Source: Candidatus Heimdallarchaeota archaeon (lineage in GTDB: Archaea > Asgardarchaeota > Heimdallarchaeia > Hodarchaeales > Hodarchaeaceae). From it: a DNA stretch of 19,460 bases. A model generated the notes under the pieces. It had not been told where the DNA came from. It did no database searches and worked only from the letters and a program-made list of their open reading frames with translations. A program made the translations under genes and the position numbers. Shown one piece after another: positions 4,370 to 7,590 of this stretch. How positions within the stretch are numbered: the first letter of the stretch is position 1; each line of letters opens with the position of its first letter. Where the stretch lies: contig JBHLSH010000074.1 in assembly GCA_048881705.1 (NCBI GenBank), positions 1 through 19,460 of the forward strand. Direction: 5' to 3'.

Positions 4370-5350
4370 GTGCTCCTGTTGAAGGATGAGAGATCTTCCA
4401 AAGGCGAAGCGGAACCTGACCCGACAAAACCTAGTCCGTCGGAGCCTAGTAAAACTGATCTCTTTGCGCAAGAAAGAATTTTTTTTCCAGGAAGGATAAG
4501 CTTACTAGAAAGCATTGAAGACCAGCTAAATACGGTGGGTGATGTCTGGATCCATCATGGCTTCCGTGTTCCCTACGAAGACCCAATAACGTTTGAAGAT
4601 GTCTATGATATACATTATCATGATACTGTTATGATTCCCAGTATTCTGCATACCCTCTTTGACAAGATCGGTGGCAAAAGAACAACCAGCATTGCAGCAT
4701 TGAGTGGGATGAAAACACCCGATATAATATTAGTACAAGATCCTGCCACCATGAATACAGCCGTTTTATTTCAAGGAAATCTTTGGATCACTGAAATTCT
4801 TCTTCGAGAAGCTTCCATGCTCGATCCACTGCCACTTGCACGAACAAATGCAGTTACAGATATATTATCTGATCCACAATTAGTTGAAACATCGCAAGAT
4901 GACATCTCCATCGAAATTAACGGTTTTCGTACAAATGAAGGGACAACTCTAAGCCAGATCATAATCCCGCTTGATAGTGAATACCGCCCAAGGATAGGTG
5001 GGACAAGAGATCCTGCCATCCGTCTGAAAAATCCCATCCAACATCTTCCCGAAGCTGCCGAGCTGGTCCTAATGATTTCTGATGCCGTAACATCCTCAGC
5101 AAAACTCTACCTTGGGACAGTAAACATCCGCCTGCGAGAAGATCGTCCTGCTCCAGAACTTCCAGAAGAAGTAAACATCATCTGTATGAAAATCTACCGT
5201 AGATATCTTGACATTATTGAGGTTGGATCTCGAGCGCAACCCAAACAGTTTGGCCTTCACCCTAGTTCCTTGTTAAAATTTAGAATTTTTAGGACTGAGG
5301 TAATTAAATCAATTAAAACCCTTTCAACTCTTTTACATTTAAACTCGTAG
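4370..5350 (+). CDS. Hypothetical protein, 326 aa; no family recognised
   Basis: Long ORF filling the gap between ggt and the ArsR gene, with globular composition after a P/S/E-rich N-terminus. Start uncertain. Confidence 0.75.
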   Translation: MLLLKDERSSKGEAEPDPTKPSPSEPSKTDLFAQERIFFPGRISLLESIEDQLNTVGDVWIHHGFRVPYEDPITFEDVYDIHYHDTVMIPSILHTLFDKIGGKRTTSIAALSGMKTPDIILVQDPATMNTAVLFQGNLWITEILLREASMLDPLPLARTNAVTDILSDPQLVETSQDDISIEINGFRTNEGTTLSQIIIPLDSEYRPRIGGTRDPAIRLKNPIQHLPEAAELVLMISDAVTSSAKLYLGTVNIRLREDRPAPELPEEVNIICMKIYRRYLDIIEVGSRAQPKQFGLHPSSLLKFRIFRTEVIKSIKTLSTLLHLNS

Positions 5351-5389: not shown

Positions 5390-5884
5390 TCATTTTTTCG
5401 CTGATTGGTGCTCATCAATGACCTTCTTGGCCTCTTCAATCCAGATACGGGTTAAATCCAACCCATCAAGCTCTTCCTTAGCTTTTAAAAACTCCTTCTT
5501 TTTAGCTTGATATTCAGCCGGCTTAATTCGGCCGAGAACAAATCCCCGTTCGAGTTCATCTAATTTAGCGGTCATGATGCCGTCCATGGACTGGAAAAAA
5601 GTAATCATTGCGATGTCGATTGCATCCATCATTTCAAGTCCCGGAATAGTAAGGTGATACACGAAATGGGGAGTCGGGAACGGCTCAACAGTACGTTCAC
5701 AGATATAATTGGATTGAAGCAGTTTCAGATGCTTTTCCACAGCTGGGCGGCTGATATTCAGATTATCTGCAAGCTCTGCTGGATTTAGGGGTTCCTTGCT
5801 GAGCATTGTTAGGATCTTACGGCGTGTTCCATCGCTGAGAACTTTCAAAATTTCTTCGATTCGGAGTTCTAGTATTTTTCTCAC
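5390..5884 (-). CDS. ArsR/SmtB-family winged-helix regulator with C-terminal SHOCT-like extension, 164 aa
   Basis: ILKVLSDGTRRKILTML...PAELADNLNISRPAVEKHLKLL is the ArsR HTH. C-terminal KLDELERGFVLGRIKPAEYQAKKKEFL is SHOCT-like. Confidence 0.9.
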   Translation of the reverse strand: MRKILELRIEEILKVLSDGTRRKILTMLSKEPLNPAELADNLNISRPAVEKHLKLLQSNYICERTVEPFPTPHFVYHLTIPGLEMMDAIDIAMITFFQSMDGIMTAKLDELERGFVLGRIKPAEYQAKKKEFLKAKEELDGLDLTRIWIEEAKKVIDEHQSAKK

Positions 5885-6099
5885 GAAAAAAACACCGTCC
5901 GTTGTCCTGCCCGATCAAAAAACTCACATATATCTTTTACTTACATCTTCCTTTGACATATATGGATTATCTTCAGTCTTAAAATCCTCAGTTAACCCAA
6001 CGGTTTAACGAGGAAACCTTCAGGTTTGACGCCCAAGCTGATCCGTTTAGGATGTTTTTTATTGTTTCGTCACCGAAGCTTAATCAGATAGAATAAAAG

Positions 6100-6951
6100 G
6101 TGAATGACGTGTCGCGGAAAGAGATTGAAGAGTTACAAACCTTATTAAAAGCGCTAGATATAAGACTCAAGAATGATGAAATCACCGAACATGAATATGA
6201 AACAATAAAAATGAAATATCAGGCCCAACTCGAAGAACAGATGGCCGTTGTTAAAGAGAACAGCTTTTTGAAGGATCTTTCCTACGTATCCATTTCGGGC
6301 TCAGGAAAGGTAACGGATTCGTATGTCTCTATTTCTGGTTCAGGACGAGTAGAAGGCTGGCGAGGGGGCTCAATTTCCATTTCAGGATCTGGAAAGATAA
6401 CAGATGATGAGATAAAAATCAGCGGATCAGGTTCACTTCCTGGTGATATGGTAACTCAGAAACTAAAAGTTTCAGGTGCATTAAAGGTAGGTGGAGCCTT
6501 AGAAACTGAACAACTCATGAGTTCTGGCTCTTTAAAGATCGAAGGGCCATTAACCGTTACGGAAAAGCTTTCTATTTCTGGTTCTGGCAAAATTGAAGGT
6601 GATATTAATGCGCATGGTGCAATGGTTAGTACTAGCGGCGCATTAAAGGCGGAAGGAAACTTGGCGTGCAATGAAGCAGAAATGAACGGCTCTTACACCA
6701 TCGAGGGTAATGTGGACTGTAGTGGTTCTTTTCGATCAGAACTCAGCGGAAAAAGCCGAATTGAGGGTCATCTTTCGGCAGACGGGGATGTATACATTGA
6801 GCAGGATCGTTCCTCGGCCTCCTTAAAGGTAGAAAGTATCTATGCGAAGGGAAAGGTGTATTTGGAAGGTGTTAAAGCCCAATTAGTGCAAGGAACGTCA
6901 GTGGAATTGGGGCCAGATTGTGTTATCGAAAAAGTCGAGGAAAAAGGATAA
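6100..6951 (+). CDS. Polymer-forming cytoskeletal (bactofilin-like, YhbE/YhbF-type) beta-helix protein with N-terminal SHOCT-like helices; start possibly GTG 6109
   Basis: SISGSG occurs four times plus KISGSG and degenerate copies. C-terminus VYLEGVKAQLVQGTSVELGPDCVIEKVE resembles the YhbE/F ending. AGGTGA SD at 6098-6103 favours GTG 6109. Confidence 0.8.
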   Translation: MNDVSRKEIEELQTLLKALDIRLKNDEITEHEYETIKMKYQAQLEEQMAVVKENSFLKDLSYVSISGSGKVTDSYVSISGSGRVEGWRGGSISISGSGKITDDEIKISGSGSLPGDMVTQKLKVSGALKVGGALETEQLMSSGSLKIEGPLTVTEKLSISGSGKIEGDINAHGAMVSTSGALKAEGNLACNEAEMNGSYTIEGNVDCSGSFRSELSGKSRIEGHLSADGDVYIEQDRSSASLKVESIYAKGKVYLEGVKAQLVQGTSVELGPDCVIEKVEEKG

Positions 6952-7011: not shown

Positions 7012-7590
7012 TTATTGTCTTTCTTTATAGACCGAAATATACTCCTTAATTGTTCTTCCCAGCGATTGGAAAGCCTCGGTAACATTGAGTCCGGTCTTTG
7101 CTGAAGTATCAAGATAACTTATTTCGAAAGGGATATCTGAAATCTCGCCCTGGGAGGTTTTAATGAACTGTTCCAGGGCTCCATTGTCGATAGCATTTGG
7201 TAGATCTGCTTTATTTCCAAGTAGAATATACGGAATTTCTCGGCCAACGTTGGTAAAGAGTTCACTTTTCCAATTGGCAAGATTGTATAGTGATTCTGGA
7301 CGTGAACTATCGAAAACGAGAATAGCACCGTGGGAGCCTTTGTAATACAATGCCCTGACGGCACTGAACCTTTGTTGTCCCGCCAGATCCCAAATTTGGA
7401 ATTTATACTGCTGACCATCGATATTTAAATCTTGGACGGCAAAATCAGCACCAATGGTCAAAATATATCCACTTTGAAATCCTTTGCCTAGAAAGCGTTC
7501 TCTTAAAGAAGTCTTTCCGACCCCACCATCACCCAGAAGGCATATTTTATATAGAGGCACTTTAAATTCTCCTAGTTTAGACGTCGACAA
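7012..7590 (-). CDS. Ras-superfamily (Rab-like) small GTPase, 192 aa, TTG start
   Basis: G1 GDGGVGKT, G2 TIGADF, G3 WDLAGQ, Rab-like RFSAVRALYYKGSHGAILVFD, G4 NKAD, G5 TSAK. No C-terminal Cys. Confidence 0.96.
   Translation of the reverse strand: MSTSKLGEFKVPLYKICLLGDGGVGKTSLRERFLGKGFQSGYILTIGADFAVQDLNIDGQQYKFQIWDLAGQQRFSAVRALYYKGSHGAILVFDSSRPESLYNLANWKSELFTNVGREIPYILLGNKADLPNAIDNGALEQFIKTSQGEISDIPFEISYLDTSAKTGLNVTEAFQSLGRTIKEYISVYKERQ

Follow-up and report, generated by a model that had tools for sequence, protein, structure and literature searches.

A SHOCT-like hairpin on both products of an old archaeal gene pair: an ArsR-type regulator and a bactofilin-domain beta-helix protein of Hodarchaeales

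In a genome of the Hodarchaeales (class Heimdallarchaeia, Asgard archaea), two genes are transcribed head-to-head, one for a small regulator of the ArsR/SmtB type and one for a protein in which an N-terminal helical hairpin precedes a long beta-helix with matches to bactofilins. An earlier note on this DNA had pointed out that the C-terminus of the regulator and the N-terminus of the beta-helix protein resemble each other and the short helical domain SHOCT, and had suggested that a filament might sequester its own regulator through this shared module. The question that the locus raises is whether the likeness is real and, if so, whether it ties a transcription factor to the scaffold protein whose gene it would control. 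We analyzed the window, a stretch of 19,460 nucleotides (contig C74) of a metagenome-assembled genome of 3.96 Mb in 155 contigs (91% complete), together with related genomes and distant homologues. Our data indicate that the locus is an ancient archaeal two-gene regulator/target module, that both of its products carry SHOCT-like hairpins which likely share a common origin, and that a conserved putative operator lies between the genes. Docking of the two hairpins is a more tentative proposal and is weighed below against its alternatives.

The gene pair, its products and the putative operator

Both open reading frames (ORFs) were confirmed, the regulator at 5390-5884 on the minus strand and the beta-helix protein at 6100-6951 on the plus strand, and the divergent spacer between them measures 215 bp (5885-6099), as the earlier note had it. 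Most orthologues and a public gene call (P0114, 280 amino acids) suggest that the beta-helix gene starts at the GTG at 6109; this is probably the true start, in which case the protein has 280 residues and the spacer 224 bp.

The pair recurs well beyond this genome, which bears out the synteny that the note had proposed as a check, and the counts that follow come from related genomes that are kin and are thus not independent. The beta-helix gene is present in all 21 genus genomes, and in 20 of the 21 genus loci fetched it stands in a block with a 326-residue protein, the regulator and a Ras-like GTPase. In the second family of the class, the Heimdallarchaeaceae, the divergent pair alone persists, at 25-38% identity. 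Among 49 species-representative Heimdallarchaeia loci of the regulator subfamily 39 are paired, and both hairpins are present in all 39. Among 1.84 billion representatives searched, full-length homologues with both hairpin and beta-helix also appeared outside Heimdallarchaeia, one labelled Thermoplasmatota and one Lokiarchaeota. A metagenome scan with a single-protein query returned nothing; with a narrower alignment as the query it gave loci, which come without taxonomy, and in 14/14 of those with a distant homologue a divergent ArsR-like gene lies upstream.

Of the 10 unpaired loci one abuts the end of its contig; at the remaining nine the regulator keeps its downstream neighbors and its hairpin, and another gene occupies the upstream slot. 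The beta-helix gene was located elsewhere in five of these nine genomes, with its hairpin kept, and it adjoins an apparent tRNA 3' end in at least three of them. In three such loci (L102, L103 and L105) it lies directly downstream of a tRNA-like 3' end (sequence ending CCCCGCACCA), and a dyad of the kind described below is recognizable upstream of the unlinked gene in 3/5 genomes, one copy being degenerate. This hints at relocation of the beta-helix gene, with its operator, near tRNA. A strict co-occurrence of hairpin and regulator was considered and rejected: hairpin-bearing beta-helix paralogues occur that have no regulator, as do the nine species loci with a regulator and no adjacent beta-helix gene. 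In six Heimdallarchaeaceae loci (L033 and L036-L040) a second beta-helix paralogue with a hairpin is followed in tandem by one that lacks it, with no regulator nearby, and these tandem paralogues recall the paired bacterial bactofilin genes BacE/BacF.

The regulator is an ArsR-fold protein. Pfam matches it with HTH_5 (PF01022; 4.7e-10, 39.6 bits against a cut-off of 22) and HTH_20 (PF12840; 5.2e-10, 39.6 bits against 27). Its AlphaFold model, built from its own alignment (predicted local distance difference test, pLDDT, 90.6), matched CzrA/SmtB (template modeling score, TM, 0.78; 30% identity) and the archaeal Phr structure 2p4w in Foldseek, and 2p4w was also returned by a PDB profile search at 7.5e-10. 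In the model, helices at residues 2-16, 19-30, 35-42 and 46-58 and a beta-wing at 62-78 make up the DNA-binding domain, in which the recognition-helix block S45-K54 is invariant among orthologues. A 37-residue helix (80-116) follows the wing, and then come the hairpin and the last helix; the second-family regulator ends directly after the hairpin. Metal ligands of the alpha-3N Cys or alpha-5 His/Asp/Glu kind were looked for among 23 orthologues; the only Cys or His kept in all of them is H52, which belongs to the recognition helix, and the NCBIfam model HTH_metalloreg scores 46 bits, under its cut-off of 55. The regulator is thus not a canonical metal sensor.

The beta-helix protein matches Pfam Bactofilin (PF04519) in four stretches at 3.3e-13 (50.1 bits against a cut-off of 27.9). 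The same model matches 28/29 homologues, and DUF2807 matches 11/29 (at 0.01 or better); in the window protein DUF2807 reaches 15.6 bits against a cut-off of 24.2. The AlphaFold model, again from the protein's own alignment (pLDDT 90.5), shows a core of ~220 residues wound as one continuous beta-helix. By sequence the best PDB match was the DUF2807-type structure 3lyc (1.5e-4), and no solved bactofilin chain was matched in that profile search or stood among the top structural matches. Foldseek of the model against the PDB gave nothing at E <= 0.001, and VIA-align matched generic beta-helices only, with the DUF2807/Toastrack-type structures 3ljy and 3jx8 at Z 11. An attempt to tell bactofilin from Toastrack by fold search did not separate them, generic beta-helices being what was matched. 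We file the protein as a bactofilin-domain protein and as a candidate for nucleotide-independent polymerization into filaments.

The spacer holds a pair of AACY-N4-RGTT dyads. One or more such dyads occur in 20/20 genus loci, in 6/8 second-family loci and in 35/39 paired species loci, and the 21-bp spacing recurs in most genus loci. The single dyad pattern occurs 258 times in the 3.96 Mb, and the exact tandem occurs only here. A wider regulon reached through the tandem dyad was sought and rejected, as the genome holds no second exact copy and one loose match (contig C21). In the distant metagenome loci the same core sits in a longer palindrome, TTCAAC-N6-GTTGAA, between both genes. Because this operator core survives while the proteins drop to ~30% identity, we infer that the regulator binds the dyads and controls the pair, for which the survival of the core is strong indirect evidence. 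Very probably, then, an ArsR-type dimer binds both dyads and controls the adjacent beta-helix gene, and probably its own gene too, and it would act there either as a repressor or as an activator. A T/A-rich block that is conserved across the genus spacers could be where the beta-helix gene has its promoter, which would place the dyads upstream of that promoter.

Likeness and origin of the two hairpins

Regulator residues 107-132 (nucleotides 5489-5566) and beta-helix-protein residues 15-40 (nucleotides 6142-6219) do align without gaps in the register that had been pointed out. Taken by themselves the two segments are little alike: 6/26 positions are identical, and BLASTP of one protein against the other gave nothing (E 53). 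The residue pattern by which they were first compared was defined post hoc; it occurs in only these two of 7,668 ORFs of at least 80 residues, and in a relaxed form 5 times. With ~3 other ORFs carrying it, the motif is not so common in the proteome that its presence on both neighbors would be expected.

Comparison of alignments is more telling. With hhalign, the orthologue alignments of the two proteins paired in exactly this register (beta-helix protein 16-46 with regulator 108-138; P 6e-4), and the beta-helix N-termini set against the regulator C-termini alone gave P 1.7e-4 and a score of 24.2. Column shuffles reached a mean of 10.3 (standard deviation 2.2, maximum 20.5), with 0/200 attaining the observed score, and the reversed alignment scored 11.1. 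A hidden Markov model (HMM) of the regulator hairpin ranks the neighboring protein 4th among 23,731 genome ORFs, at E 1.3. In both AlphaFold models the hairpin consists of two short helices joined by a tight turn near a protein terminus, as SHOCT does, and the residues that form the turn, 25-29 of the beta-helix protein and 117-121 of the regulator, occupy equivalent motif positions. E112 and Y125 are invariant in the regulator hairpin. The likeness of the window's own two hairpins is weak but order-specific.

Is this module SHOCT? The Pfam model (PF09851) has 28 positions and a gathering cut-off of 27 bits, and at E <= 10 it matched nothing in the window proteins, whether whole or as segments, nor at this locus in a six-frame scan of the genome; the two window hairpins each have a weak match to GvpG, below threshold and in both cases to the same C-terminal part of that model. 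The check with Pfam SHOCT that the earlier note had proposed thus fails for the two window proteins and comes out better among their orthologues. Positions 3-26 of the model were matched in 18/24 beta-helix orthologue N-termini, at a sub-threshold 14-25 bits (best 1.2e-5). In six-frame scans of 61 related genomes, beta-helix N-termini recur as sub-threshold SHOCT matches and one member, at 28.8 bits, is over the cut-off; the homologue P0168 carries precomputed matches to both PF09851 and PF04519. A profile of the beta-helix-protein hairpin also retrieves an SPFH/Band_7_1 protein of this genome by its C-terminal tail, and SPFH/Band_7_1 is the commonest SHOCT architecture (PMC3581485). On these comparisons the answer for the hairpin of the beta-helix protein would be largely yes.

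For the regulator the link is more remote. Among 23 orthologues its hairpin matches the C-terminal part of GvpG in 13, SHOCT in one (E 0.056) and the SHOCT-like DUF1707 in one; its C-terminus stays under the SHOCT gathering score, and its connection to SHOCT rests on profile-profile similarity. The distant loci supply the intermediate, as there the regulator C-terminus and the beta-helix N-terminus are both near-canonical SHOCT-like segments, and for 2/9 distant regulators the match to SHOCT covers the whole model, at 16-17 bits. Within these loci hhalign joins the two hairpin types at P 3e-6 (probability 88%); across lineages it joins the Heimdallarchaeia beta-helix hairpins to the distant regulator hairpins at P 1.4e-5, and the window-type regulator hairpins to the distant ones at P 3e-7 (probability 93%). 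Since both partners are near-canonical in the distant loci and the profiles align at these P values, the shared SHOCT-like hairpin appears to be an ancestral feature of the pair, of which the window's regulator holds the most diverged copy. It is likely that the C-terminal hairpin of the regulator and the N-terminal hairpin of the beta-helix protein descend from a common source.

The claim of a shared module therefore stands, and on the evidence of the orthologue Pfam matches and the distant-pair profiles it can be extended to the whole family as an ancestral feature. The accompanying statement that neither ArsR regulators nor bactofilins normally carry SHOCT does not hold, as both regularly do in this archaeal family; P0168 likewise speaks against it, as do the one homologue above the SHOCT cut-off and bacterial SHOCT-like fusions to helix-turn-helix (HTH) and beta-helix domains (PMC11237479).

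Docking, its alternatives and known systems

What might a hairpin on both partners do? In the mechanism that we propose, a regulator dimer or dimer of dimers would sit on the tandem dyads and set the transcription of the scaffold gene, and probably of its own. Scaffold that has assembled, or has reached its place in the cell, would dock the regulator through the hairpins and so take it off the DNA, and transcription of the scaffold gene would then report the amount of free scaffold, in a partner switch like that of BacR with BacE/F. Docking is favored because both partners have retained the same hairpin across lineages that are very far apart in evolution, and because Bacillus subtilis bactofilins bind BacR, lower its binding to DNA and move it from the nucleoid to the membrane (PMC13649987). 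That the pair, its hairpins and the operator between them are all conserved across distant archaea suggests that the scaffold may feed back on its own regulator. Such physical coupling, with the scaffold removing the regulator from DNA, is argued by analogy, and we give it a little less than an even chance; that the matched hairpins form a dedicated docking pair, through which the scaffold captures the regulator and releases it when free subunits run low, is rather unlikely.

Several observations weigh against docking. The earlier note had called SHOCT an established oligomerization module, when in fact the paper that defined the domain examined oligomerization and found none, and this sole experiment on a SHOCT domain saw no self-association (PMC3581485). 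The HMM of the beta-helix protein's hairpin fails to retrieve the regulator among the 23,731 ORFs, and no regulator C-terminus is among the SHOCT matches listed for the six-frame scans of the 61 genomes. Hairpin-bearing beta-helix paralogues occur that have no adjacent regulator, often in tandem with a hairpin-less paralogue. Nor is the hairpin confined to the pair: in this genome E2-like, SPFH and ribophorin-like proteins have it, and other Asgard lineages carry it on yet other proteins. Because of these regulator-less paralogues, and because hairpins sit on unrelated proteins, the module looks generic rather than like a dedicated docking pair. The 37-residue helix and the hairpin could serve as the regulator's own dimer or tetramer interface. 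Polymerization of so long a beta-helix is putative, the closest solved relative by sequence being of the DUF2807 type and not a bactofilin, and contact between regulator and scaffold is itself a proposal by analogy.

The most substantial alternative is that the locus encodes an ordinary local regulator and its target, with no cross-talk between the hairpins. The hairpin of the regulator would then extend the alpha-5 dimer interface typical of ArsR proteins, or build a tetramer that bridges both dyads, and that of the beta-helix protein would help this protein to assemble or to attach to the membrane. C-terminal helices do mediate dimerization in ArsR/SmtB and archaeal Phr-type regulators, and the structural matches of the regulator include CzrA, SmtB and Phr (2p4w); two dyads separated by two helical turns suit a dimer of dimers, and both the paralogues that lack a neighboring regulator and the absence of SHOCT self-association in experiment (PMC3581485) fit as well. 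Against it stands that most ArsR-family proteins dimerize without any such hairpin, that both partners retain the motif across very great distances, the two copies being more alike in the distant lineages, and that the regulator retains its hairpin where the genes are unlinked. We regard this explanation as quite possible, at roughly a one-in-three level of belief.

Docking might also be replaced by a common destination, in which both hairpins bring their proteins to a third site. This could be the inner membrane face or an SPFH/Band-7 platform whose subunits have the same tail, and the regulator would be held off DNA by its location and not by the scaffold itself. SHOCT-like domains have been predicted to be inner-leaflet anchors in sub-membrane complexes with Toastrack proteins and HTH regulators (PMC11237479), the SPFH/Band_7_1, E2-like and ribophorin-like proteins of this genome carry the hairpin, and BacR is membrane-localized (PMC13649987). 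This explanation draws on prediction, however, and leaves unexplained why this regulator, among many, is so tightly paired with this gene; we think it improbable. Convergence is less probable still, and we give it very little weight. On this reading two amphipathic helix-turn-helix segments, both with many E, K and L residues and an aromatic one following the turn, would mimic each other as well as SHOCT and GvpG with neither descent nor function in common. The modules are ~30 residues long and of biased composition, and it is true that the hairpin Pfam matches in the window's own proteins are all sub-threshold and that BLASTP was negative. The shuffled and reversed controls, however, stay under the observed profile score, register and turn position agree, and the distant pairs are near-canonical on both partners.

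The known system closest in logic to the proposed docking switch is BacR (YhbD, DUF4004) with BacE/BacF in B. subtilis and Geobacillus, where a small DNA-binding regulator is likewise encoded with, and controls, bactofilin genes. The differences are several. The regulator is a DUF4004 protein there and an ArsR protein here, the window regulator having no DUF4004 match; the genes form an operon there and a divergent pair here; no shared SHOCT-like hairpin has been reported for that system, whereas both partners carry one here; no specific operator was found for BacR, whereas conserved dyads are present here; and that system is bacterial, whereas this one is archaeal and has a much longer beta-helix. 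By analogy, the module may work like the BacR switch without being a member of it.

In architecture, the nearest relatives are bacterial. SHOCT-like-Toastrack proteins such as B. subtilis CAB15517.1 are beta-helix scaffolds with N-terminal SHOCT-like hairpins, and DUF2089 proteins (zinc ribbon-HTH-SHOCT-like) are HTH regulators with a C-terminal SHOCT-like domain from the same Toastrack neighborhood; the two are predicted to form sub-membrane signaling complexes with transcriptional output (PMC11237479). These systems are described from computation only (PMC11237479). Their beta-helix is of the DUF4097/DUF2154/DUF2807 kind, whereas the one here matches Pfam Bactofilin with a weak affinity to DUF2807; their regulator is a zinc ribbon-HTH protein and not an ArsR protein; and PspC/LiaF-type membrane partners occur in those contexts and are absent at this locus. 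To call the pair a candidate new system, as the earlier note did, is nevertheless too strong, as HTH-SHOCT-like and SHOCT-like-Toastrack proteins in shared operons had already been described (PMC11237479).

SHOCT itself (PF09851) is, like the module here, a short terminal two-helix unit with promiscuous partners and the core G-x-I-x3-E-[FY]-x3-K (PMC3581485), from which the window's two copies differ in falling under the 27-bit cut-off, the regulator copy being barely detected. Canonical bactofilins (BacA, TtBac) and the archaeal halofilins HalA/HalB share the Pfam Bactofilin core with terminal extensions (PMC11459167), but the core here is roughly twice the bactofilin domain. A helical hairpin of HalA directs membrane targeting and affects polymerization (PMC11459167); that hairpin is internal, between two subdomains, whereas the one here is N-terminal and SHOCT-like. 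No paper naming bactofilin together with SHOCT turned up in a full-text literature search.

What is known, then, is the bacterial switch mechanism and the bacterial architecture of the hairpins; what is new is an archaeal, ArsR-based version with a bactofilin-domain scaffold and a defined, conserved operator. To our knowledge, SHOCT is a widespread domain whose function has been unknown since 2013, and we know of nothing on how archaeal bactofilin-type scaffolds are regulated. With two genes, one defined operator and two small hairpins, the locus is a compact, conserved and genetically simple test case. If the hairpins dock, SHOCT-like domains would gain a function as general hetero-association tags, and the BacR-type partner switch of Firmicutes would have an archaeal counterpart built on an unrelated regulator, by a logic that is either convergent or very old. 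This would be a first handle on the regulation of a cytoskeleton-like protein in Asgard archaea, and archaea, including the Hodarchaeales relatives of eukaryotes, would have a sensor of cytoskeleton state wired to transcription. Even without docking, the locus remains a clean archaeal set of regulator, operator and target with a defined dyad motif.

Feature coordinates, neighboring genes and other hairpin-bearing proteins

Table 1. Features of the divergent locus, in window positions, with the basis of each assignment.
Feature	Position	Strand	Basis or remark
ArsR/SmtB-type winged-helix regulator, 164 amino acids	5390..5884	-	Pfam, AlphaFold, Foldseek, PDB profile search
Regulator C-terminal helical hairpin, residues ~100-140	5465..5587	-	Model: end of helix 80-116, turn 117-121, helix 122-140
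Winged helix-turn-helix DNA-binding domain, residues 1-78	5651..5884	-	AlphaFold model and invariant block
Divergent intergenic control region	5885..6099		Half near beta-helix gene conserved in the genus, half near regulator variable
Putative operator dyad 1, AACY-N4-RGTT	5994..6005		Conservation across loci
Putative operator dyad 2, AACY-N4-RGTT	6015..6026		21 bp (two helical turns) from dyad 1
Conserved T/A-rich block, putative B recognition element (BRE)/TATA of beta-helix gene	6046..6064	+	Columns T.TTAG.A...T.T.TAAC of the genus spacer alignment
Protein with SHOCT-like hairpin and long bactofilin-domain beta-helix, 283 amino acids	6100..6951	+	Pfam, AlphaFold
N-terminal helical hairpin	6103..6258	+	Model: helix 2-24, turn 25-29, helix 30-53; SHOCT matches in orthologues
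Right-handed beta-helix, residues 62-281	6283..6942	+	Model strands 62-281

Two further genes flank the pair in the window. The 326-residue protein (4370-5350, plus strand) lies behind the regulator gene and is convergent with it; it has no Pfam or NCBIfam match and is kept in the same position throughout the genus at ~50% identity. On the other side, the beta-helix gene converges with that of a canonical Ras/Rab-like small GTPase (7012-7590, minus strand; Pfam Ras 2e-44). Their adjacency is conserved in the 20 genus loci that reach that far but not in Heimdallarchaeaceae, and it probably reflects synteny at the genus level, with the GTPase standing outside the module. Both flanking genes were considered as a third gene of the module and rejected, being syntenic within the genus only, and beyond the pair no gene is common to both families. 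In Heimdallarchaeaceae the regulator sits beside a 169-residue protein and a 654-residue ORF, which from its sequence we take to be aCPSF1-like.

Elsewhere in the related genomes, SHOCT over the Pfam cut-off was observed in small ORFs of 160-200 residues in most of the genus; no such match was found in this genome, at its 91% completeness, or in its closest relative. Within this genome the hairpin is a promiscuous terminal module. An SPFH/Band_7_1 protein (contig C72:11773-12672, plus strand; L193) ends in a SHOCT-like hairpin, as does a 700-residue ribophorin I-like protein (contig C73:5332-7431, plus strand; L194), which has two copies of the hairpin. A 256-residue E2/UBC homologue (contig C15:7419-8186, minus strand; L192; Pfam UQ_con, 53 bits) has a C-terminal SHOCT-like hairpin at residues 215-245, and in this Asgard E2 the hairpin may be a localization or association tag.

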